From an uncultured Clostridia bacterium (GTDB lineage: Bacteria; Aerophobota; Aerophobia; Aerophobales; AE-B3A), in contig CAZIXA010000008.1 of NCBI GenBank assembly GCA_964543295.1, forward strand, positions 4,764 to 68,763: DNA of 64,000 bases. Direction: 5' to 3'. Numbering within the stretch: the stretch's first letter is position 1; every line of letters begins with the position of its first letter. Position numbers and translations under genes: made by a program. Of the stretch, positions 3,895-63,720 are shown one piece after another. The notes under the pieces were generated by a model. It did not search any database and was not told where the DNA came from. It worked only from the letters and a program-made list of their open reading frames with translations.

Positions 3895-3912
3895 AGTTTG
3901 AATTATTCAGAA

Positions 3913-3945
3913 TGGCTCCCCTGGCAGGACGATGTTGATAACAAG
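3913..3945. repeat. R-family repeat copy R2 (ggctcccctggcaggacgatgttgataacaa)
   Basis: near-identical to R3 and similar to R1/R4/R5; bounds the BrnTA cassette on the left. Confidence 0.6.
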
Positions 3946-4263: not shown

Positions 4264-4542
4264 TTATGCCCCTGTTTTGAGTTCCTCTTTTACCTTTTCG
4301 GCAAGATAGACTTTCATTAGAGACTGGTAGGGGATGTCTTTTTGATGAGCGATGTTCCTCAGTTGTTCAAATAGTCTTTCCGGTAGCCTAATTGAGATGT
4401 GTCTGGAAGAAGGATGCAGGTTGGGAAAATATGCTCTTTCTGCTTTTGACCAGTCAATATATTCAGTAGAATCATGGGTGCTCCAAAATTTACGTTCCTC
4501 ATCCTCGTTTTTAAATTTTGGTACCTTTTTTGATTTTTTCAT
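4264..4542 (-). CDS. brnA: BrnA-family antitoxin (CopG/RHH-like)
   Basis: 92 aa; BrnA-like motif STHDSTEYIDWSKA; overlaps upstream toxin gene. Confidence 0.6.
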   Translation of the reverse strand: MKKSKKVPKFKNEDEERKFWSTHDSTEYIDWSKAERAYFPNLHPSSRHISIRLPERLFEQLRNIAHQKDIPYQSLMKVYLAEKVKEELKTGA

Positions 4543-4825: not shown

Positions 4826-5133
4826 TCTCGTATATTTATATTATATACATTTTATGATTTGTCAAGACGCGTTAAGTCATACACAGACAAGGAGAAAAGA
4901 ATGCAATATTTTTGAAAACTATATTATATACTTTTGCCAAAGAGTAAAACTATCGCTTGGAGTAAAAAAATGATGGAATATCCAAACATTAGCAAAAAGG
5001 GAAATAATGATTCATTGCCCCAGAAATTAGCTGAAATATTACCAGATCTAAAAATTGAGAAGATGGAATTAGCCGATAGTAACAGCACTGTGGGAGGTTG
5101 GTATAAAGATTAAGGTTGGTCATTCTTCAATCT

Positions 5134-5162
5134 GGCTCCCCTGGCAGGACGTTGTTAGAACT
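5134..5162. repeat. R-family repeat copy R3 (ggctcccctggcaggacgttgttagaac)
   Basis: direct repeat of R2 on the other side of brnTA. Confidence 0.6.
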
Positions 5163-11198: not shown

Positions 11199-11474
11199 AT
11201 GAACAAAGCAGAATTAGTAGAGGAAGTAGCAGGAAAAGTTGGACTGACAAAGAAGGAAACTAACAATGTAGTGGACGCTATAACGTCAGCCATTACTGAT
11301 TCTCTGGTAAGAAACGAAAAAGTAATATTGGTTGGACTCGGCACATTTGAAGTGAGGAGGCGAAAAACTCGGACAGGAGTTAATCCTCAAACTAGACAAA
11401 GGTTAGTTATTCCTGCGATGAATGTGGCTAGATTCAAAGCGGGAAAAGGATTAAGAGAAAGGGTGGGTAGGTAA
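11199..11474 (+). CDS. hup: HU-family nucleoid-associated DNA-binding protein
   Basis: 91 aa; MNKAELV...GFGTFEV..R..R.GRNP.T signature; SD aacaGGAGGtatt. Confidence 0.85.
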   Translation: MNKAELVEEVAGKVGLTKKETNNVVDAITSAITDSLVRNEKVILVGLGTFEVRRRKTRTGVNPQTRQRLVIPAMNVARFKAGKGLRERVGR

Positions 11475-11515
11475 CGTTGATATCGGAAGTGTAGAGAAAT
11501 AAAAGACAAAGTTCT

Positions 11516-11836
11516 ATGGATATCGATAGACGTAAACTATTAAGAACACTAATTACAGAGGATTTATGGAAAAGGCTATCTCCAGAAGAAGTTAGGCTAT
11601 ATCTTCTTCTTGTAATTTCTATTGATGAGACAAAGGAAATAGGGGAACTAAGAAAACGGGATATTGAGAAATGTCTGGGATATAGTCTAACTGTTGGGCA
11701 ATTAGAAAAAATTACCCATACTTTCCGAGAACTTAACTTAGCTGAGATAGAATATTCTAAGGAGAAATCAGAGGTAAAATTTACACTCGTGGGAAAGGAA
11801 TCCTCAGACGAGAAAAACTATTCAGGTCCCAGCTAA
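11516..11836 (+). CDS. hypothetical small protein (possible wHTH); 3' end encoded out-of-frame by HU-derived DNA
   Basis: 106-aa ORF between intact hup and HU 3' copy 2. Confidence 0.35.
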   Translation: MDIDRRKLLRTLITEDLWKRLSPEEVRLYLLLVISIDETKEIGELRKRDIEKCLGYSLTVGQLEKITHTFRELNLAEIEYSKEKSEVKFTLVGKESSDEKNYSGPS

Positions 11837-11888
11837 AAAGGTTGCTAAGTTTAGACCGGGAAAGGGATTGAGGGAAGCGGTAAGGTAA
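11797..11888 (+). pseudogene. displaced HU 3'-end copy 2 (encodes ..NPQTRKTIQVPAKKVAKFRPGKGLREAVR* in HU frame)
   Basis: ~90 nt homologous to hup 3' end (11385-11474) with stop codon; followed by same tail motif as copy 3. Confidence 0.7.
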
Positions 11889-11950
11889 AAATACCAACGT
11901 TTTTTGTCCATTGAGGATTTTGAGCTTTGAAATCTGCACCTAGTCTATAA

Positions 11951-12001
11951 CAAAAGACGCAAAATTAGCCAAAATAAGAGGCTTTAATCTTTTCAATGAA
12001 G
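11951..12001 (+). repeat. tail motif copy a (caaaagacgcaaaattagccaaaataagaggctttaatcttttcaatgaag)
   Basis: ~50-bp motif repeated at 12378-12422 and 13843-13892. Confidence 0.7.
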
Positions 12002-12095
12002 GAAACCTATTGTTGATAAATCTTGATATTATACAGTTCTGTATAAGATGTTAGGCAGTAAAATAAATTAAACCGCTTGCATACAGGGGGTTATT

Positions 12096-12389
12096 ATGAA
12101 TATTCTAGGGTGGGTAGTTTGGGCTGTCGCAATGTTCATATTTATTGTTCATATTTTCCTTTTTTTCCATTCTGACCCAGGCGTTAGTCGTCTTGCAAAA
12201 CGATTTAGTTTTTTAATTGCAATAGGGCTAGCCATTACAGCATTTACAAAATTATCGAAATTCCATCTCATCTGGTGGATACCTGTTGCATATCTTTTTA
12301 ATCTTTGGGCTTTTTCGGCAAGAGTTCAGCGAGACGCTAAAAAATTTATTGAAAAGCTTAAGGGAAGAAAACAGGAGACGCCAAATTAG
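12096..12389 (+). CDS. small two-TM membrane protein
   Basis: 97 aa, two hydrophobic helices, basic C-terminus; SD acaGGGGGttatt. Confidence 0.4.
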   Translation: MNILGWVVWAVAMFIFIVHIFLFFHSDPGVSRLAKRFSFLIAIGLAITAFTKLSKFHLIWWIPVAYLFNLWAFSARVQRDAKKFIEKLKGRKQETPN

Positions 12390-12422
12390 CCAAAATAAGA
12401 GGCTTTAATCTTTTCAATGAAG
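12378..12422 (+). repeat. tail motif copy b (solo, without HU 3' fragment)
   Basis: gacgccaaattagccaaaataagaggctttaatcttttcaatgaa, 43/45 identical to copy a; overlaps stop of ORF 12096-12389. Confidence 0.7.
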
Positions 12423-12611
12423 AAAAACTTGCATTGACAGATTTCGACGTTTTCTCTTGAGCTTCTCTCGCTTCTAGGAGCACTCATTCATAACGAAGTC
12501 AGGACGGAGAGGAGACAGCAGCCCCAGGCTGAGAAGATGAATGAACATACCTGGCAGAGAAGTACCTCGGACACGAACAATCAAGTGCCATGCTAATCGT
12601 GGTTATGGAAA

Positions 12612-13610
12612 ATGAGGAACATTAAGAAAGATATTGAGCAGCTTGAAACTGCAGGAGAATTGCTGGACAAGGATTCCCCCACTGCAGCGAGACTGTCTTT
12701 GTTTCTTTTGGATAACTTGGTGGAACTTCTGATGTACAGAGTTGTTAGGCAAGAGTTCGCTTTGGATGATACACTATCTTCTGTCAAACCGCCAAAGTAT
12801 TCGGCCAGCAAGAGACGTAGGGTGCTTACGTATTTCAATGACAAAGCAAATTTTCTAGTGTCAGACCTAAAGAGATTAGACCCCCACCAGAGTTCTATCT
12901 TAAAGCTTGGACATCGCCTAAGAAACGAGGCTTACCACAGTGGCATCCTCAGAGAAAGGATTGTTATTCCACTCACTCGTATGTACTTCCGGACGGTCTG
13001 TGAGCTTCTGCCTGCTCTTTGGTTAGGGGCCGTGGGATGGAAACGTCACAGCGAGGTGACGGATTTTCTGAAGAAATATAAACTGGATTCTCAAAGCATG
13101 AACGAGGATACTTTGGGCCAAATATGCCAGATAATACTGAAAGGAAGGCAGTGCATAGTTCCCAGACTATCAAGGGTCCTTGCAGATGACTTGGTCTCAA
13201 GGATAGAGAGAACCGTTAAGAGCCTAGAGCATCTTCCTTCCCTCGGGCAAAGGCACTCACCAGAGGAGAATTTGAGATGGATACAATTCTGGGAGGAAAC
13301 CGATATGGAACTTCGTACCGGAGCGTCAGATGAGGAACTTCGCGACTTCTGGGAAAAAGTCAACATGACCCTCTCTGCGTTTCGTCCAAAGGTTGCGTTA
13401 GACACTCTCCACATTTGGAAGAATAGAGCAAGGAAAATAGAATTTGAGACTTCATATGGTGCAGCTTGTGCCAAATTTGATGAGATAGACCAATCTTTCC
13501 TCAGAATAGAAAGTCTTGTGTCGGAGGCCATTGCGGAGTATGAAAAATATATAGACCTTCAAGTAGACAGCCTAATAGAAGAGGAGCACCATGGAACCAT
13601 AGGCCAATAG
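12612..13610 (+). CDS. HEPN-like (Rx4H motif) hypothetical protein
   Basis: 332 aa, all-helical; KLGHRLRNEAYHSG matches HEPN Rx4-6H RNase motif; visibly GC-richer than neighbours. Confidence 0.4.
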   Translation: MRNIKKDIEQLETAGELLDKDSPTAARLSLFLLDNLVELLMYRVVRQEFALDDTLSSVKPPKYSASKRRRVLTYFNDKANFLVSDLKRLDPHQSSILKLGHRLRNEAYHSGILRERIVIPLTRMYFRTVCELLPALWLGAVGWKRHSEVTDFLKKYKLDSQSMNEDTLGQICQIILKGRQCIVPRLSRVLADDLVSRIERTVKSLEHLPSLGQRHSPEENLRWIQFWEETDMELRTGASDEELRDFWEKVNMTLSAFRPKVALDTLHIWKNRARKIEFETSYGAACAKFDEIDQSFLRIESLVSEAIAEYEKYIDLQVDSLIEEEHHGTIGQ

Positions 13611-13659
13611 TCCGTTTATCGGTCGGAAAACAGCGATTTCCTGGCCAGTAGCGGGAATG

Positions 13660-13775
13660 ACAAAAGAAAGATAAGAACCGGAAGGAATCCTCAGACACGA
13701 CAAACTACTCAGATCCCAGCAAAAAAAGTCCCCAAATTTAGACCGGGAAAGAGATTGAGGGAGAAGGTGAAGTAA
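13660..13775 (+). pseudogene. displaced HU 3'-end copy 3 (..KIRTGRNPQTRQTTQIPAKKVPKFRPGKRLREKVK*)
   Basis: ~115 nt homologous to hup 3' end incl. stop; followed by tail motif aaaataccaacgtttttt...gacgcaaaatt..aataagagg.tttaatcttttca.tgaa. Confidence 0.7.
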
Positions 13776-13842
13776 AAAATACCAACGTTTTTTATCCACT
13801 TTACATTTGTGGTCTTTGAAGCATGCTTATAGCAAAAGACGC

Positions 13843-13892
13843 AAAATTGGTCATAATAAGAGGTTTTAATCTTTTCAGTGAAAAAAAAAATA
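13843..13892 (+). repeat. tail motif copy c
   Basis: caaaagacgcaaaattggtcataataagaggttttaatcttttcagtgaa. Confidence 0.7.
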
Positions 13893-14189
13893 TCATTGAT
13901 AAGTTTTGACCTCTTCCTTTGGCTTCTCGTTGCTCTAAAAGTACTACTTTATAATGGGACTGAGAGCTATGAACAATCTATCTGGTCAGCTGGGTAATTT
14001 GTCTACTCCCCAAGAGCTCTTCAATACCATGCAATATTTTCACAAGTCCACTTTCTGGAGTTTAGTAGCAATTTTGGGAGGATTCTACTGTACTCTCGGA
14101 CACCATATAATGGAGAAAAAGCAAGGTATAAAACTATTACTCAACCTCAAAATCCTTGAAATAGAGTGTAGAATATTTGGAGGAATTGG

Positions 14190-21517: not shown

Positions 21518-24500
21518 CTAACCGTTGCTGCTCAATGAGGCAACAGCAGGGGTAATTCCGGACCTGCGGTAGACCTCATCAATCTTTTCTTGAAGTTCAA
21601 TCGTGAGCTGAATCGCTTTTTCCACCTTCATATAATGGTCAATCTCATCCAGACAAAGCTTCCGGCCTCTTCTATCCTTCAGGTATTTCTCCATTACCTG
21701 ATAAGCTCCGATTCGGTATTCCCACACTTCTTTCGAGATACCCTCAAAACACTGACCTTTGTTGATATAGACTCTTTGGCTCCCTTCATCATATTGCACC
21801 TTTTCCATTTTATTGGAGCCACTTACTGGGTAGCCAATCTCGGTTTGGGAAAGAGAAAAGTGTTTAAATAAATGAAGTTCAACAAGCTCTTTACCAAGAT
21901 TGCTCAAAGTCCTGAAAACTTCATAATCTTTCGGTAAGGGAATCCTAGGAAAGTCTATTTTGAGGAATTCCTGGTAACGCTTTCGGTAGGTGGAGGAGTA
22001 AAGCACGGCATAGATGTAATAAAAAATCTTTTCTGGAGCCGGTTCCATTTCATGAGATTCTTTTACCGCCTGCAAGAATTTATCGGTGAAATTTGGAATT
22101 TTCGGTTCTCCAGACAATTCCTGGGAAAGAGCCAGATCTTCACGTCCATGCTGGTAAAGGTAAAGAGGGAAGCAGTAACAATTATCCCTTGAGGAGATAA
22201 GAGTTTTGTCTGTTATGTGGGAGGTAACCAGAATGTGCCGCCAAATAGGATCTCTTAGCCTCTTCGTAAGATTTATTGCTAAATTACTCCTTTCTATCAT
22301 ATGTCTCATCAGTTTAAACCTATCTCTTTCAACAAGTGCCCAATGATAACAGATGTATCGCCAATCAAAGGGCCTGTAGTCATAGAGATAGATTAAATCC
22401 TCCCATTTTTTACCTTTGACTTTTTCCCGTATCTTCGAAACCATCCAATCCTTGGTGTCCTTCAATTTCAAGTCCATCTTGATTAAATCACTCGTCAGTG
22501 ACCCTGTGAATACCTTCATTCTTTGTACTATCTCATCGCTTGTAAATCCTACTACAAGATGATCTCGTGCGGTGGTTACACCGAAAGACCACTGTCTGAA
22601 GATCTCCGTTATCTTCCAGAATTTCTCATACTCCTCTTGCAGAGCAAAATCTTTAGGAACAAAGAAGTAGTAAGGAGCGACAGGCTTAAGTTCTTGCCAC
22701 TTAGTTGTCTCGGTGTCGTTTTCCGAGAGGTATCCGTATTTTTTACTTCTCAGACCCCAAAGGTCCGCATAGTAGACTTTCTTTTCTTTCTCTGGTCTCT
22801 CAAGTTTTACATAGAGGGCAATAGTAACCCCCTGCTGGATGTCAAATACATTCTCGTCTTTGCCGCCTTCGGGGGTCAGCTCACTTATTCTTGAGGAACC
22901 ATGCAGATTTAAAAGATAAATCTCATTAAAGGTCTCTAAAAGTTTACTCCGCATCCCCCGATGAATTACCCCTGAAAGATAGGAGTTATTGGTGATAAAC
23001 CCCAAGATTCCTTTACCAGCTTGCTCTATTTTCCATTGACCAAAGCGGATAAACTTTATGTAATCATCAGAAAGAGGCTGGATATTTCGCTCCTTCCTCA
23101 CGTCTTCCTTGTAAGTATCCATCAAGTCTTCAATGAAATCCGACTTGTTTTCTGAGCTCACTGAATAAGGAGGATTGCCCAAAACAACCAAAATGGGAAT
23201 TTCTTCCTTTATTTTTTTAGCTTCACGCCCTTCTTTTGTAAGGTCAATGAGGAAACTTATCTGTCTGGGTTCTTTCATCTCCAGAGTATTGGTGAGGTAA
23301 AACTTGAATCGTTCACCTTCCTTGAACCTATAACCCATCTCTTCCAAGACCATCGATACCTTGAAATGACCTACTGTATAGGGAGCCATAAGGATTTCAA
23401 AAGCATGAAAATGGGGCAAGATATGCTCTTCTATATAAGATTTAACAAGTCCTCCTTTATTTCTTTCTTCTAGCTCCCCCTGCACTTGCTTGATTGCCTG
23501 GACGAGAAAGGTCAAAGTGCCTGCTGCCGGATCAAGAAGGGTTACATCTCTGGTGGCAAGTCCTTCGACCTTTGAAAATTTTTGCTTTAAGAGTTTGTGA
23601 ATTGACCTCGTGATATAGGAAACCACTGGCAGAGGGGTATAATAAACTCCTAATCTTTGTCTTTCTTGAGGATTATAAGTAGCAAGGAAGGTTTCGTAAA
23701 AGTGAATTACCGGGTCCTCATCCCACCGAGTCGTCTTGAACTCCTTAAGAATTGAGGAAATATCGGCCTTCTCAAGCACTTGACTTATGTCATCAACAAT
23801 CCAGGATAAGGATTCTGGGAAATGTGGTCCAACAAAGGAATAAAAAATTTCCTTGAGTAAGGGTAAACTCTGAGGGATGGATTCCCAGGCAACTTCCCTT
23901 TTGAAGCCATTTTCAACCCTCATTCTGGCGGCAAAAAGTCCATAGCTCATAGTCTGGGCGTAAAGGTCTGCGAATCGCTCTTCACTCAAGGTCTCTATAA
24001 GTTCTTCTTGAAAGGCTTTGTAAAATCTCGTCACCTCTTCATTCTTACCTGAAAGCTCTTCCTGTAAAATATGTTCAAGAAATCGGGTTCTCTTGGCCAG
24101 TTCAATGGAAAGGTCAGAGGAGGTCTTTATCTCAGGTGCAGAAAAAGAGAAGAATTTTTCAAGAAGCTGGAAGAATAGATCTAACTTCTCAGGAAGGGGA
24201 GGATGCTTCAATCTCTGCAAAGTAAATTGCCGACCCACCTCCACCTGATCAATCAGACTGCCTTTCCGGTATAACCTGAACTCCAAGAAATTGGTCAAAA
24301 TGAGGTTAGGAAGTGAGCCCAGATACCTCCTGAGCTGCTCGGAGCCTTCAACTTCTCTGAGGCTGGCATCAGGTGGTTTTGCTTCAATGTATCCAACGAT
24401 TTCGCCATTTTTACCGATGCGAAAGTCAGGGATTCCTACTTCTGTTCTTCTAGGTAAAACAATAACGTTTGCCCTTGCTTGTATTTGAAAAAATCGGGAA

Positions 24501-24634
24501 AGTTCTTCAATGAATCCCTTAAGTGCAGGATAGAAGCTTTCTTCCCTGAAATTGCCACCTGTATAAATCTCATGGATTTCCCTAATGTAGCTGCTAAGAG
24601 TTTTTTCGAATTTGTCTCTTTGCCTTTTCTTCAT
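21518..24634 (-). CDS. MmeI-family Type IIL (IIG) single-chain restriction-modification enzyme
   Basis: 1038 aa; N-terminal PD-ExK (GIPDF...GYIEAKP), gamma-class N6-adenine MTase motif I LLDPAAGTLTFL and motif IV NPPY, C-terminal TRD-sized region. Confidence 0.7.
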   Translation of the reverse strand: MKKRQRDKFEKTLSSYIREIHEIYTGGNFREESFYPALKGFIEELSRFFQIQARANVIVLPRRTEVGIPDFRIGKNGEIVGYIEAKPPDASLREVEGSEQLRRYLGSLPNLILTNFLEFRLYRKGSLIDQVEVGRQFTLQRLKHPPLPEKLDLFFQLLEKFFSFSAPEIKTSSDLSIELAKRTRFLEHILQEELSGKNEEVTRFYKAFQEELIETLSEERFADLYAQTMSYGLFAARMRVENGFKREVAWESIPQSLPLLKEIFYSFVGPHFPESLSWIVDDISQVLEKADISSILKEFKTTRWDEDPVIHFYETFLATYNPQERQRLGVYYTPLPVVSYITRSIHKLLKQKFSKVEGLATRDVTLLDPAAGTLTFLVQAIKQVQGELEERNKGGLVKSYIEEHILPHFHAFEILMAPYTVGHFKVSMVLEEMGYRFKEGERFKFYLTNTLEMKEPRQISFLIDLTKEGREAKKIKEEIPILVVLGNPPYSVSSENKSDFIEDLMDTYKEDVRKERNIQPLSDDYIKFIRFGQWKIEQAGKGILGFITNNSYLSGVIHRGMRSKLLETFNEIYLLNLHGSSRISELTPEGGKDENVFDIQQGVTIALYVKLERPEKEKKVYYADLWGLRSKKYGYLSENDTETTKWQELKPVAPYYFFVPKDFALQEEYEKFWKITEIFRQWSFGVTTARDHLVVGFTSDEIVQRMKVFTGSLTSDLIKMDLKLKDTKDWMVSKIREKVKGKKWEDLIYLYDYRPFDWRYICYHWALVERDRFKLMRHMIERSNLAINLTKRLRDPIWRHILVTSHITDKTLISSRDNCYCFPLYLYQHGREDLALSQELSGEPKIPNFTDKFLQAVKESHEMEPAPEKIFYYIYAVLYSSTYRKRYQEFLKIDFPRIPLPKDYEVFRTLSNLGKELVELHLFKHFSLSQTEIGYPVSGSNKMEKVQYDEGSQRVYINKGQCFEGISKEVWEYRIGAYQVMEKYLKDRRGRKLCLDEIDHYMKVEKAIQLTIELQEKIDEVYRRSGITPAVASLSSNG

Positions 24635-25104
24635 TTTCTCAACAAGCCTTTATTGAGAAAATCACTTCAATGGAATGTAAGTACTATCATCTATACTTCT
24701 CATAAAAGTCCTTTATGTGATATAGATGTTTCCATCACGAACGATGCTTCTCTAAACGATCCATATAACCGTTCTTTTTCCAGAGATACAGACCGAGACA
24801 GCACAATCCTATCAGTGCCAAATGATTCTGTCAAGCTGAAAATAAGCACAAAGGCTTTATTTGGAGTAATTTTAGCAAGGATGATATTTTTGAAATTGAG
24901 AGAAGAGAACAAAAAGTTAAATAGAGTGTATTATAGTAGCAGATAAGGTAGTCTGTTCTGGCGAGCATGCGAACGTAAAAAGAACAAAAGAACATAACAA
25001 CTCTTGACAAAGATGTAATGTACAGTAAGATATAAGTGGTTGTGCAAGTGCTCTGAGAGACCAGAAATATAAGATCTTTCATGTCTCTGTTAAAGTGGTT
25101 GTTC

Positions 25105-25240
25105 TTTTCCTTAAAGAGAGCTTTGCTCTCTAACCCGCTAGTAAGGAAGAGACTGCATCTATCGCCGTGCTTCGGTACGGCGAGGGGGTGGCAGTCTTGA
25201 CCGGTTTTCCTAGCGGGTTACCGGAAGAGATATGTGCCCC
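25105..25240. ncRNA. candidate structured RNA element / complex terminator between XRE regulator and RM gene
   Basis: nested helices: 11-bp outer stem (taacccgctag/ctagcgggtta), 7-bp stem (agactgc/gcagtct), 8-bp stem capped by UUCG tetraloop (cgccgtgc-ttcg-gtacggcg); preceded by 6-bp hairpin gagagc-ttt-gctctc; followed on + strand by cccccttttttatt. Confidence 0.35.
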
Positions 25241-25359
25241 CTTTTTTATTGGGATGATAGACAAGTTTTGATTAATGTTAAAGTGGGAAGTGGTTAAATC
25301 TTTTTATTGGTTTTAATATAAAGAATTGTTGCTAGGCCGGAATGAGGATTATCTTGACC

Positions 25360-25686
25360 CTATTCTTCTAGCAGAGCTTTAAGAACTTTTAAGACAAGCT
25401 TAAGAGCTTTTGCATTTTTATTGCGCAGAAGATTTGTTATCTCTTCTCTTAAGCCAACTTCGGTAGAAGGCCTTTCTGGGAAAGAAAAGAGTTCAGCAAT
25501 ACTCACATTTAGCCCCTTAGCAATTTTTTCAATACTTTGGAGTGAGAGATTTCTTTCTCCTCGTTCTACAGCGCCAATATACGTGTAATGAAGGTTAGCC
25601 TTGGCAGCCAATTTTTCTTGTGACAGACCTTGCATCTTTCTCAATTCTTTTATTCTATTTCCCAATTTAACCAGTATCTGACTCAT
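25360..25686 (-). CDS. XRE-family helix-turn-helix transcriptional regulator (possible controller protein)
   Basis: 108 aa; LRKMQGLSQEKLAAKANLHYTYIGAVERGERNLSLQSIEKIAKGL. Confidence 0.7.
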   Translation of the reverse strand: MSQILVKLGNRIKELRKMQGLSQEKLAAKANLHYTYIGAVERGERNLSLQSIEKIAKGLNVSIAELFSFPERPSTEVGLREEITNLLRNKNAKALKLVLKVLKALLEE

Positions 25687-25960
25687 AACTCACCTTTTTT
25701 GTTTATTCTAGGAGAGAAAGGAACAGATAGCTACAGACGATAAATAGTATTTTTGCTTGACAAGAAATACGATAAGTAGTAATATAATTGAGGTAATTAA
25801 CAAAGAGAAATACAAGTTCTTCGATTCTCAAGTTGTTCGTATTCCTTTTTCTTCAAAGTTTACCGTAGGAGGCAAACAAGGACGAGATATGAAACTATAG
25901 TTGTCTTAACAGTTGGAAAGGTGATTAGTATATTTGTGGGCTATTTGTTAAAAGCAATTA

Positions 25961-26386
25961 TTGCTCCTTTATCAAGACCTGGAAGCTAATAAAATGGGCA
26001 AAAAGATAAAAAGTGATCAAAAAAATATCTTGGTAGTTGATGACGATATGAGTGCACGAACTGTATTTTCAAGCGCCTCAAAAAAAGAGAGCTATCGAGT
26101 GACTGCGGTAAAAAATGGCTATGAGGCGATAAAGGCTATAGATGAAGAAAGTTTTGATCTTGCCGTGATAGATCTTAGAATGCCAGGGCTGGATGGAATT
26201 GAAGTTTTAGAGAAGATAAAGAATAAAAGGCCTCAAACCCGAGTCATTATTTATACGGGATATGGTTCGATAACGACCGCAGTAGAGGCCATGAGGAAAG
26301 GAGCCGTCGACGATCTTATTAAGCCATTTTCTCCCGACCAGCCCAAGGCAGGCATTAAAAAAGCATTAGAGAACTACGGAGACTAA
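25961..26386 (+). CDS. stand-alone receiver (REC) domain protein; true start probably MGKK at ~25994
   Basis: ILVVDDD, DLRMPGLDG, K in IKP; no output domain. Confidence 0.7.
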   Translation: MLLYQDLEANKMGKKIKSDQKNILVVDDDMSARTVFSSASKKESYRVTAVKNGYEAIKAIDEESFDLAVIDLRMPGLDGIEVLEKIKNKRPQTRVIIYTGYGSITTAVEAMRKGAVDDLIKPFSPDQPKAGIKKALENYGD

Positions 26387-26585
26387 TGAAAGTCGCACAA
26401 TATTTTCCTTCCCCCACTCTTAAAGATACAGCAGAAAAATCAAAACTGAAAGTGAGGTGAAGAATACCCAAAGTGAAAAAAGAATTTCCCGAGGTACAAG
26501 AATCACAAAAAAGAGGTGAACTTGCAGCATGGTGGGTTTTCCCCACTTTAAGTGATGCCTACTTCATAGTACGAGGTGTACTACA

Positions 26586-27347
26586 ATGAGAGCTAATTGT
26601 GTTTTGAGAGTAGTGTTAGTGTTTGTACTGTCGGTGATCTTTACCCTATTGCCATTTACCCTGGCACACGCTTATATCGAAGGCTGTCTGGCCAAAGGAG
26701 TAACATCCACTGGATCCGACGCTACCACCAGTAGAGGCTCTGGTGGTCACTCTGAGGCGGGTGGTACCATAGCCACTCACGACGCCTATGCAGAATACAG
26801 CGAGGAGAGCTATTTTGCAGGGTTTGGCATCAATACCAACAATACCGCACAAGGAATATTCGCTGGAACCGGAATCGGCAAAAGAGGCAGCTCTCTAGAA
26901 CTTGTCGTAACCATGGCTGACGTCTCTGAATTCAGTGATTTTCTCTTCAGCGCCAAGTACCAATTTCTAGGTGAGACTCTCTCTCGTCCTGCCATGGCGG
27001 TGGGGGTCGATGCCATTAACGAAATCCCTGGACAAATGCACTCAAGTCCCTACATAGTAGCTTCAAAATTTTTCCCCAAGGTAAAACTCCCGGTTATAGC
27101 TTCCTTAGGTTGGGGCTCAGGAAGGTTCAGAGATAATTTCTTTGGAATCTTGGCCTTTGTCCTGTCGAGGCACTGGAATTTCATCGTCGAATACGATGGA
27201 GCCGGAGGTAATGTAGGAATATCTTTTGGGAGCGAGGTATCCTTGTGGAGACCCTTGCCGGTGGTGGTTATTCTCGGAGTCCAGAACGCTTTTGCCTCAG
27301 AGGAAGAGAGTGTCTTCAGCATAGGAGGAGGAATAAGATTCCCTTAA
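26586..27347 (+). CDS. secreted protein, possible outer-membrane beta-barrel
   Basis: signal peptide, Gly/aromatic-rich alternating pattern. Confidence 0.35.
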   Translation: MRANCVLRVVLVFVLSVIFTLLPFTLAHAYIEGCLAKGVTSTGSDATTSRGSGGHSEAGGTIATHDAYAEYSEESYFAGFGINTNNTAQGIFAGTGIGKRGSSLELVVTMADVSEFSDFLFSAKYQFLGETLSRPAMAVGVDAINEIPGQMHSSPYIVASKFFPKVKLPVIASLGWGSGRFRDNFFGILAFVLSRHWNFIVEYDGAGGNVGISFGSEVSLWRPLPVVVILGVQNAFASEEESVFSIGGGIRFP

Positions 27348-27668
27348 GAAGGTAGTACCAAATTAATAATTGCTAGTTTTGACTTTCGGGGGTTCTTAAG
27401 TTGCGGCAGTTTCGCCCGATGATTTCTTTAGAGTTCCCCCTGATTATCTTGTAAAGCGGAGGGTAATAGGTAAGTCTTTCTAAAAAATGGTAGCCGCAGG
27501 CTTTAGCCTGCGCTTGCAGACAATAGTTTCTTTTTCTTTACGCTACCTTACCTTGATGAATAAGTTCCGTAATCTGTCGAGATTGCCACGTTTGCCTTCA
27601 ACAGAATCGCAATGACGAAAAGAAAAGAATTTTAGAAAAACTAAACTGTTACAGTGGAGGAATACTAA

Positions 27669-59445: not shown

Positions 59446-60783
59446 CTAAATCTCCATTAATTTCTTCGTCAAGCCAAGTTCTGAGAGAATCTCTGCCAAT
59501 TTCTTTACAGTCTTTGGATTTTTGGCTAAAGCAGTTATGATCTCATCAGAATTTTTCCTTTTCTCATCAAGCTCTATTGCGGTTTTTACATCTAGAACTT
59601 TGCTACATTTTTGGCAAAAAAGAGCGTCCTTAGAATTAATACCTCCACATGACTGACACTGTTTTGGTTTTAGAAGGCTTTCTTTTTCTTTTGTTTTCTT
59701 GATTCCGTGAATTTCCAGAATGGTGTTATTCACATCGCTTGAGAGAAGATGGGAATATTCAGAAAGCATCTTGCTTGAAGGAACCCAGCCAAAATAAACC
59801 TTGGCCTGGGCTTCGCTTATCTGTCTGTTAATCAAAAGATGAGTTACTCTCGTGTGCCGGAAGAGATGATGATAAAGCCTCTTTTTAATCTTAGCCTTTC
59901 TTTTGAGTCTTAGAATTAGTGCTCTAAAACTTCCGTATTTCATCTTTTCATTTTTATTTCTGTTTCCAGTCATAACCCATAAAGGAGATCGAGGATTATC
60001 TTTCCCGGGGTGCAGATTAAGCCAATTGGTAATGTAAGGATCAGATATAACTATTCTTGGAGTTCTATGACCAGTTTTTCCATTTAAATCAACTATGTAG
60101 CTATATCTATCTCTAGTAACGTCCTTGATTTGTAGAGAACCTATTTCTCCAATTCTAGCACCAAGTTCGTATAGCATAGAGACAAATGCTTTATCCCTCG
60201 GATATTCTGCAGCATCTATCAATCTTTTGATATCTTTTTCGGTGAGAATATCTGATGCCTGTACCTTTGGTTGATCCTTTTTCTTGACGTTGGTGTTAAT
60301 CCAACTTACAATTTTAGGATAATCATTTCTTTCTTTATAGTTATCTTTATACTTTAACCATTTGTAGAACTTCTTTAGTATTGCTCTATAGCCTTGCTTT
60401 GTCCAAACCGAATAATCTTCTCTTGATTCTATTTTGATAACAACTTCCTTTATATCTCTTTCAGTAGCTTTATCAAAATCCTTTTTCAGATATTGGCTTG
60501 CTAACATTAGGAGACTACTAATCAATTTAATTCTTCTGGGTTTGCTTAGTCCTTCTAAGAAACATGTCCTGTCAAAGTCTAAAATCAAATCTTTATTCTT
60601 TTCAGAGATGGTTGATTTCTTAACTCTTTCCAGAGCTGATTTATACTTAGTACTATAGTCATGGATATCTTTTGTAGGGATCATACTAATAGTGTAGATC
60701 CAACTAGTATATAAATCTTTCGGCTCTGAACTAGTTGTGCAACGCCCTGACCGGACGATGAACAACTTGTATGGATCCCACAA
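59446..60783 (-). CDS. tyrosine site-specific recombinase/integrase with C-terminal zinc ribbon
   Basis: 445 aa; R..HxxR..Y catalytic pattern (HHLFRHTRVT, ..KVYFGW); CQSCGG...CQKC. Confidence 0.7.
   Translation of the reverse strand: MWDPYKLFIVRSGRCTTSSEPKDLYTSWIYTISMIPTKDIHDYSTKYKSALERVKKSTISEKNKDLILDFDRTCFLEGLSKPRRIKLISSLLMLASQYLKKDFDKATERDIKEVVIKIESREDYSVWTKQGYRAILKKFYKWLKYKDNYKERNDYPKIVSWINTNVKKKDQPKVQASDILTEKDIKRLIDAAEYPRDKAFVSMLYELGARIGEIGSLQIKDVTRDRYSYIVDLNGKTGHRTPRIVISDPYITNWLNLHPGKDNPRSPLWVMTGNRNKNEKMKYGSFRALILRLKRKAKIKKRLYHHLFRHTRVTHLLINRQISEAQAKVYFGWVPSSKMLSEYSHLLSSDVNNTILEIHGIKKTKEKESLLKPKQCQSCGGINSKDALFCQKCSKVLDVKTAIELDEKRKNSDEIITALAKNPKTVKKLAEILSELGLTKKLMEI
60741..60775. repeat. 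R-family repeat R4, inside first 15 codons of integrase gene
   Basis: cgccctgaccggacgatgaacaacttgtatggatccc. Confidence 0.55.
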
Positions 60784-62910: not shown

Positions 62911-62951
62911 AGTCAATTATATACGAAATCAGCTTTTTGTTAAGTTTGAGG
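62911..62951 (-). promoter_or_regulatory. duplicated upstream element of AlbA_2 paralogs (copy 1)
   Basis: tcaattatatacgaaatcagctttttgttaagtttgagg vs 63681-63720 tcaattgtatacgaaattcgctttttgttaagtttgga. Confidence 0.4.
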
Positions 62952-63680: not shown

Positions 63681-63720
63681 ACTCAATTGTATACGAAATT
63701 CGCTTTTTGTTAAGTTTGGA
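63681..63720 (-). promoter_or_regulatory. duplicated upstream element of AlbA_2 paralogs (copy 2)
   Basis: see copy 1. Confidence 0.4.

Follow-up and report, generated by a model that had tools for sequence, protein, structure and literature searches.

A structured RNA family with two competing folds and an intrinsic terminator, a candidate transcription attenuator of uncultured sediment bacteria

The window, the 64,000-nucleotide stretch of DNA analysed here, carries between an XRE regulator gene and an RM gene an intergenic element of nested helices. The first-pass annotation had suggested a small RNA, a cis-regulatory element controlling RM expression or a recombination site. We asked whether the element acts as RNA or as DNA, on which strand, and on what. 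The comparative evidence places it in a family of plus-strand RNAs with two alternative folds, and of the proposed functions the class of small RNA or cis-regulatory element proved to be the right one.

The element and its neighbours in the window

Folding of both strands confirmed that the structure is real. The plus strand of ~25100-25247 folds with -69.8 kcal/mol (z = -5.6; 0 of 200 shuffles were as good), and the minus strand with -55.4 kcal/mol (z = -4.0). The helices, the UUCG loop, the small hairpin and the C5T6 tract described previously are all present (Table 1). The three nested stems of 11, 7 and 8 bp are likewise there, but they are not strictly "perfect", as the inner 8 bp include one G.T pair; the outer helix reaches 11 bp if T25131-A25220 is counted, and T25131 also belongs to the small hairpin. 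The element had been given an extent of ~100 nt at 25105-25240. It does lie there, but the conserved core comprises ~150 nt (25099-25247, plus strand) and runs seven bases past that end. The 20-mer of the inner hairpin occurs only once in the window, even when 3 mismatches are allowed. Two small ORFs overlap the region, one of 39 aa on the plus strand from 25081 and one of 44 aa on the minus strand (25130-25264). We rejected both as genes, since neither is conserved in the related locus L028, which lacks the start codon and has indels that disrupt the frame.

Table 1 Coordinates of the element, its parts and its neighbours in the window, with promoter-like sites of related loci
Feature	Position	Strand	Description
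Promoter-like site, sigma-70-like	25004-25031	+	TTGACA-16-TAAGAT; 10 of 12 consensus matches; 68 nt 5' of the core
Leader, promoter to core	25038-25098	+	Own hairpin predicted (MFE of 25030-25260; growing-transcript folds)
Segment a	25103-25113	+	TCTTTTCCTTA; pairs with 25142-25152 (D1) or, via 25103-25110, with 25223-25230 (P0)
Small hairpin H1	25115-25131	+	AGAGAGC-TTT-GCTCTCT; in both folds; 3 of 7 pairs changed on both sides
Outer helix P1	25132-25141 / 25210-25219	+	AACCCGCTAG / CTAGCGGGTT; 10 bp
Segment a' and P2 5' strand	25142-25160	+	TAAGGAAGAGACTGCATCT; common to D1 and P2
Middle helix P2	25145-25160 with 25186-25202	+	Core AGACTGC / GCAGTCT; extends to ~14 pairs
P3 hairpin with UUCG tetraloop	25162-25183	+	Tetraloop 25171-25174; in both folds; 7 of 9 pairs changed on both sides
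Inner helix P3	25163-25182	+	CGCCGTGC-TTCG-GTACGGCG; 8 bp, one of them G.T
Contested strand	25184-25204	+	GGGGGTGGCAGTCTTGACCGG; P2 3' strand and 5' half of the terminator hairpin
P1 3' arm	25210-25219	+	Sits in the apical loop of the terminator hairpin
Terminator hairpin 3' half, then T6	25221-25247	+	CCGGAAGAGATATGTGCCCCC; includes a'' GGAAGAGA (25223-25230)
Tail	25237-25241 (C5), 25242-25247 (T6)	+	Read from the sequence
RM protein, 1038 aa	21518-24634	-	Left of the element; fused N6_Mtase, Eco57I, weak MmeI_Mtase, Type_ISP_C
RM promoter-like site	24834-24806	-	In front of the RM gene
XRE (HTH_3) protein, 108 aa	25360-25686	-	Right of the element, convergent
Promoter-like site, L044		+	TTGCTA-16-TATACT; upstream of the core
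Promoter-like site, L041		+	TTGATT-16-TAGAAT; upstream of the core
Promoter-like site, L070		+	TTGACA-16-TAGAAT; upstream of the core

We then examined the two adjacent genes. The idea that the element controls RM expression did not hold up: its functional strand, as described below, is the plus strand, opposite to the RM gene, which has a promoter-like site of its own, and blastn and nhmmer searches of 25 RM homologs (58-84% identity, bacterial and archaeal GTDB genomes) found nothing similar to the 726-nt intergenic region. Control through a C-protein and operator was rejected as well, as the element occurs without an RM gene in all other loci. The RM homologs (N6_Mtase plus Type_ISP_C, 58-84%) span very distant lineages, among them ANME-1/Methanophagales archaea, WOR-3, Nitrospirota and Dehalococcoidales, a distribution that indicates wide horizontal transfer of the gene.

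Among full-length XRE homologs, only the closest, at L028 (89% aa identity), has the element. The block common to both loci runs from window position 25860 to 25071 with 86.7% identity and has different genes on both sides. The homolog at L034 (86%) is followed by unrelated DNA after its stop codon, and those homologs at 62-67% for which the contigs were inspected have different gene surroundings and lack the element. No element was detected with blastn and nhmmer in L029-L033, or with the covariance model described below in L029, L031, L034, L035 and L037. The XRE gene adjoins the element in two loci only, and an XRE link as a rule was rejected; about 30 family members have neither XRE nor RM nearby.

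Beyond the XRE gene lie a receiver-domain protein and then a long plus-strand polysaccharide-export cluster (YjbH-like, OEP, Wzz/GNVR, sugar-transferase) that starts at 25961, 714 nt past the element. The spacer between XRE gene and element, highly conserved in L028, contains a promoter-like site on the minus strand (TTAACA-16-TATCAT, 25254-25281); in L028 its -10 hexamer is identical and its -35 hexamer differs by one base. This site would drive minus-strand transcription through the element toward the RM gene.

Several other repeats were observed in the window. The 3' end of an HU-like gene is present in three copies (11378-13908), and behind each comes a conserved non-coding block of ~78 nt (repeat families D1 and D2). 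In L041, L043 and L067, HU genes are likewise found immediately before the element. A 36-nt direct repeat, TCAATTRTATACGAAAT..GCTTTTTGTTAAGTTTG, is found at 62913-62948 and 63683-63718 and also at L028 3893-3938. It adjoins a tyrosine integrase gene (59446-60783), and its copies could be the attachment sites of an integrated element. A short GC-rich repeat, GGCTCCCCTGGCAGGACG.., occurs at 2403-2443, 3902-3944 and 5122-5156, within 3 kb around an MFS transporter gene, and again at L028 5115-5146. As to taxonomy, the best named relatives of TrkH are labelled Poribacteria, WOR-3 or Planctomycetota, with 67-75% identity.

A family of plus-strand RNAs

To define the family, we used the 20-base block CCGGAAGAGATATGTGCCCC, common to the window and L028, as an exact-match pattern. 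It matched 32 contigs of marine and subsurface sediment metagenomes, against a chance expectation of roughly one or two, and nearly all of them contain the whole element. Two Logan contigs are identical to the window, one of which ends inside the element. Two more copies (L072, L073) were reached independently through relatives of a PLD gene that lies downstream of the element, and they carry the same invariant 3' block; a 70% identical relative of that PLD gene lacks the element. We aligned 23 distinct full-length copies from the metagenome contigs, the window and L028 (alignment A3) and built a covariance model (R1) from them, with which the window copy scores 178.8 bits (E = 2e-36). The model found no additional or diverged copies in 401 kb of locus sequence, where each locus has a single copy and arrays are absent.

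The alignment supports the nested structure, hereafter fold A, in detail. In fold A, 98.1% of cells are in standard pairs and 18 of 48 pairs are changed on both sides, a number reached by 0 of 500 shuffles; when the 3' partners were slid by 1-3 columns, 41-52% of cells were paired. RNAalifold independently predicted the same consensus fold. Seven of the ten P1 pairs are changed on both sides (98.3% paired), P2 is 99.4% paired, and P0 is 98.4% paired with its 3' strand fixed by the search pattern. The P3 loop reads CTTCGG in nearly all copies. The family was sampled narrowly, with a mean column identity of 86%, so a recent spread, and not constraint, may account for much of the conservation. 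The element had been judged too elaborate for a simple terminator, and a family of ~150 nt with strong covariation bears this out; its fallback reading, a bidirectional terminator lacking conservation in homologous loci, is at odds with the conservation and covariation found in 23 distinct homologs.

The strand is set by the G.U pairs. Read as plus-strand RNA, the alignment contains 153 G.U cells and 21 non-pairs; read as minus-strand RNA, it contains 12 and 162. Because the G.U pairs fit only the plus strand, we assign an RNA function to that strand, and the asymmetry argues against a minus-strand RNA, a bidirectional terminator and a purely DNA-level palindrome alike.

Searches of known families returned nothing of the kind. 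Rfam 15 (4227 models) gave no match at E <= 1 in 23000-27500, and no model reached its gathering score anywhere in the window or in 15 related loci; the only match at E <= 10 was rli56, whose 17 bits (E = 2) fall well short of its gathering score of 47. No copy was found in viral, plasmid and phage collections, which gave only two chance matches inside coding sequence, no tRNA or tmRNA was found at the loci, and a literature search found nothing relevant to the element. Judged by sequence comparison, the element is one copy of an uncatalogued ~150-nt structured RNA family of uncultured sediment bacteria, absent from Rfam.

These data leave little room for a mere terminator, bidirectional or not, that serves the XRE and leftward genes, or for a cis element or C-protein operator of the RM gene. 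Such roles would suit a GC-rich palindrome flanked by A6 and T6 that lies between two minus-strand genes and is conserved in L028 as one block with the XRE gene and the spacer, and a GC-rich hairpin followed by a U tract between convergent units is also what bidirectional intrinsic terminators look like. Yet the U tract is on the plus strand only: on the minus strand the large hairpin is followed by UCGCCG, and the 162 mismatched cells fall on that strand. Unlike such terminators, the element is conserved over 150 nt in unrelated loci, and its covariation extends to helices for which a terminator has no use. The 25 RM homologs and the XRE homologs at L034 and at 62-67% do without the element, the ~30 family members do without either gene, and most of them have no convergent gene at all. 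We regard this explanation as already largely refuted and its residual probability as very small.

Among the helices, the outer one stands out. The five central pairs of P1 occur as at least eight alleles (CCGCT, CTGCT, CTGTC, TCGCT, TGGAC, CGCTA, TTCCC and TGGAT), and the opposite arm is complementary in every copy but L028. Copies from the same context, with flanks 90-94% identical, carry different alleles, and the same alleles recur in unrelated contexts. The two arms, 68 nt apart, switch together, with no intermediates and almost no G.U pairs; L028, whose arms are mismatched, looks as if conversion had reached just one of them. This shuffling is most simply explained by gene conversion among several copies, and selection for mutually non-pairing alleles is the more interesting explanation. 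Inversion of the segment between the arms was rejected, as the internal orientation is the same in all copies.

Damaged copies were also seen. In L062 (1027-1099) a decayed copy has lost everything between its two outer arms, and in L047 (1097-1200), L058 and L059 nothing but the final ~60 nt is left, joined to the 3' end of an ORF that precedes a gene for an outer-membrane beta-barrel protein. The metagenome and Logan contigs L002, L048, L051, L057 and L069 begin or end inside the element or a few bases away; assemblers break contigs at multi-copy repeats or strain-variable junctions.

Shuffled P1 alleles, internal breakpoints (the swapped arm of L028, the lost interior of L062, the 3' remnants of L047, L058 and L059), frequent contig breaks and a location among variable, island-like genes (primase, integrase, serine recombinase, RM) are also what a DNA-level repeat would produce, that is, a recombination site, a miniature mobile element or an attC-like palindrome that forms hairpins in single-stranded DNA. 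Indeed, attC sites and REP/MITE repeats are imperfect palindromes of 60-150 nt at variable-gene junctions whose structure is kept despite sequence variation. The element differs from them in the strand-specific selection at the RNA level: double-stranded DNA would give no G.U bias instead of 153 versus 12, and a minus-strand molecule would give the opposite one. The element is present in single copy at each locus, with no arrays in 401 kb and no integron integrase, and keeps a constant orientation relative to promoter, terminator and downstream gene. Its arms do not fit the attC R''/R' boxes (RYYYAAC / GTTRRRY), as AAC and GTT stand at the outer, not the inner, helix ends, and CTCTAAC and GTTACCG, which fit 6/7 and 4/7 attC positions, are not complementary beyond GTTA. 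Neither terminal inverted repeats nor target duplications were seen at the block boundaries, the 3' end is fixed at the T run while the 5' ends are subfamily-specific (-117 to -335), and the plasmid, phage and viral collections contained no match. The recombination site of the first-pass annotation and its relatives are therefore improbable in our view.

Two folds and a terminator

Besides fold A, which consists of P0, H1, P1, P2 and the UUCG-capped P3, the RNA can adopt a second fold. In fold B, TCTTTTCCTTA pairs with TAAGGAAGAGA to form D1, the arms of P1 are unpaired, and GGGGGTGGCAGTCTT...AAGAGATATGTGCCCCC forms a terminator hairpin. The two folds share strands: GGAAGAGA is present twice (25145 and 25223) and either copy can pair with TCTTTTCC, while GGGGGTGGCAGTCTT pairs either upstream in the middle helix or downstream in the terminator. 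Two points had been missed when the element was first described, namely that a strong terminator, with the C5T6 tract as its tail, competes with the nested fold, and that the small 5' hairpin belongs to an alternative helix, D1.

The terminator itself is evident from the segment 25182-25247, which alone folds with -32.0 kcal/mol into a stem that ends at the C5 run and is followed directly by U6. This is the arrangement of an intrinsic terminator, a stable GC-rich hairpin directly before a U tract on the transcribed strand; a simple terminator scanner missed it (loop > 8 nt). L028, the copy with mismatched P1 arms, folds as the terminator form, with D1 around the small hairpin, the UUCG-type hairpin standing alone and a long terminator hairpin of GGGGTGGCAGTCT... 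with ...AGAGATATGTGCCCC that ends at the U tract.

All family members are able to form fold B as well. Overall 98.4% of its cells are paired, with 99.5-100% in the terminator helices and 98.4% in D1, where 2 pairs are changed on both sides. Most of the covariation is held by helices whose strands have a single partner (H1, the centre of P1 and the P3/UUCG stem). In strands with two partners, most changes are C/U or A/G and leave either pairing intact, and L043 carries a triple change (alignment columns 6, 56 and 104) that keeps the pairing in both folds. Mutually exclusive helices sharing a strand are thus both maintained, as in an attenuator, with conservation as the support for the terminator 3' strand. 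This strand shows zero variation in the sample, partly because it was used as the search pattern, so that neither the terminator nor P0 is backed by covariation of its own. The same block is invariant also in L028, L072 and L073, which were reached through neighbouring proteins and not through the pattern.

We next compared the energies of the two folds in the window copy. Against -69.8 kcal/mol for fold A, the best fold becomes the terminator form when the 5' arm of P1 is blocked (-66.8 kcal/mol) and likewise when its 3' arm is blocked (-62.4 kcal/mol). The folds are thus close to equal in energy, and which of them forms depends on the outer helix. In folds of the growing transcript, D1 appears first, followed by the UUCG hairpin, the middle helix and the outer helix, upon which D1 dissolves, and the closing helix forms last. 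This equilibrium path leads to fold A, so the default outcome would be read-through, and termination would need a factor or a kinetic trap. P1 could also form on top of fold B as a loop-loop pseudoknot, in which case the RNA would be a constitutively terminated small RNA.

Genomic contexts and possible modes of action

Similarity between copies from unrelated contexts starts 117-153 nt before the search block (up to 335 within subfamilies) and stops sharply at the end of the T run. Promoter-like plus-strand sites lie 52-108 nt 5' of the core in the four subfamilies checked (Table 1); that of the window is a consensus match only and lies outside the block common with L028. The leader between promoter and core is subfamily-specific, and its sequence is not kept in other subfamilies. 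In L044 (~4330-4360, at the same position in L040, L046 and L050) the leader combines a strong Shine-Dalgarno sequence with a conserved mini-ORF of 3 codons, AAGGGGGGTAAATGGAAGGATAA, and its G run is complementary to CCCCCUU of the terminator tail.

By our count, a co-directional ORF follows the T run in about 10 of 12 distinct contexts, with a gap of 39-106 nt in most contexts measured and 220-336 nt in the rest, and purine-rich, Shine-Dalgarno-like stretches can be read before several of the start codons. No plus-strand promoter-like site was found between T run and ORF in L044. Relatives of the PLD gene reached by protein search also have the element upstream. The downstream genes share no common pathway and encode secreted PLDc_2, bPH_3, lipoproteins, PsbP-like, methyltransferase and small membrane proteins, and truncated copies precede an outer-membrane beta-barrel protein. 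The upstream genes are varied and often island-like (primase, HU, Abi-like proteins). In L072 (2367-3247) and L073 (1485-2365) the PLDc_2 gene is followed by genes for MerR/HTH_17 (excisionase-like) and a serine recombinase, which suggests that this copy sits on a mobile element.

On balance, we consider it probable, by a modest measure, that the element is a new cis-acting transcription attenuator, an RNA switch placed before varied genes that mostly encode envelope or secreted proteins. Transcription would probably start from its own promoter at 25004-25031, and the RNA would adopt one of the two nearly isoenergetic, mutually exclusive folds. In fold A, which corresponds to the nested helices first described and would represent the antiterminated state, GGGGGTGGCAGTCTT would be held in P2 and the C5U6 tail would stay single-stranded, allowing read-through. 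In fold B, with D1 formed and the P1 arms free, GGGGGTGGCAGTCTT...AAGAGATATGTGCCCCC would act as a strong intrinsic terminator. Formation of P1 would decide between the two. The data show the structure, its strand, the family, the terminator and two compatible folds, whereas switching in vivo, action in cis and the control exerted at the window locus are inferred. In the window and L028 the next gene, XRE, is convergent, so no cis target is evident there. Read-through in the window would run antisense across the XRE gene and then into the plus-strand polysaccharide cluster.

Known attenuators (the trp leader with its 1:2 / 2:3 / 3:4 pairings, T-box and PyrR-type) and riboswitch platforms have four strand-sharing segments like the element, in which D1 (a:a') would correspond to the anti-antiterminator, P2 to the antiterminator and the P2 3' strand with the tail to the intrinsic terminator. 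The near-equal energies and the position of most copies in the putative 5' leader of a co-directional gene are further likenesses. Unlike them, the element has no Rfam match, its deciding helix is the long-range P1 of 10-13 bp with its 3' arm in the terminator loop, and the terminator is the most conserved part rather than the least. Nor is there a leader peptide in a conserved frame. Short ORFs do cover segment a, and as their frame differs between subfamilies (window versus L044), attenuation by a leader peptide is unlikely.

The main competitor is a stand-alone, trans-acting small RNA. Promoter and terminator would then bound a transcript of ~150-210 nt, termination would never fail, and the finished RNA would either refold into the nested structure or retain P1 in a long-range pseudoknot and act on other mRNAs or on a protein. 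The upstream promoter-like site, the strong terminator, the abrupt end of conservation at the T run and the absence of an ORF conserved between the window and L028 agree with this. So do the terminator as the most conserved part, as in many small RNAs, the many unrelated contexts, as for sibling small RNA genes, and the lack of a co-directional gene next in the window. However, the 5' strand of P2, CTGCATCT, would be an unpaired linker in a form that is always terminated, yet it varies only by changes that keep P2, and the two nearly isoenergetic folds share strands. The next ORF lies 39-57 nt past the T run in several contexts, with no plus-strand promoter-like site between in L044, the only one scanned. 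There is also no obvious conserved single-stranded seed, and neither arm of P1 matches elsewhere in any locus or in the 64-kb window. We therefore treat the small RNA as a serious but clearly less likely alternative to the attenuator.

What the attenuator might respond to is a separate matter. That it represents a new riboswitch class, responsive to a ligand, is a tentative proposal which we would rather doubt than adopt, and no conserved ligand pocket is apparent in the family. Riboswitches of the c-di-GMP-I (GEMM-I) type and similar ones for second messengers resemble it in standing before a range of unrelated genes, frequently with envelope, secreted or polysaccharide functions, and probably also in having several copies per genome. 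They differ in that the element is rod-like, with no junction pocket recognised, and does not match them in sequence or structure (cmscan, E <= 1). EAR, the eps-associated RNA, is like the window element a structured RNA that lies upstream of an exopolysaccharide cluster, reads toward it and is predicted to influence termination; it acts processively on downstream terminators from inside its operon, whereas the element carries its own terminator, has no Rfam match and in most family members is not at a polysaccharide locus.

The allelic centre of P1 allows a bolder proposal, namely that the family consists of sequence-addressed RNA switches with the P1 centre as the address, whose copies would jointly amount to a programmable regulon of envelope and island genes in an uncultured sediment lineage. 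Termination could be forced when an allele-specific RNA binds in trans to an exposed arm by base pairing, or the different alleles could prevent cross-pairing among co-expressed copies. We consider the proposal a long shot.

For the annotation of the window, the lead on RM regulation is removed as false. If our reading is right, the element founds a new RNA family of a little-known sediment lineage, a family whose comparative support is unusually clean and whose two states are explicit in its design, and the coordinated swap of both arms of the switch helix is a natural case of recombination acting on RNA structure. Should the attenuator hold true, it would give a testable handle on the regulation of a varied gene set, envelope, secreted and island-borne genes included, in this lineage, and a small molecule or a protein as its effector would make it a new class of riboswitch or attenuator.
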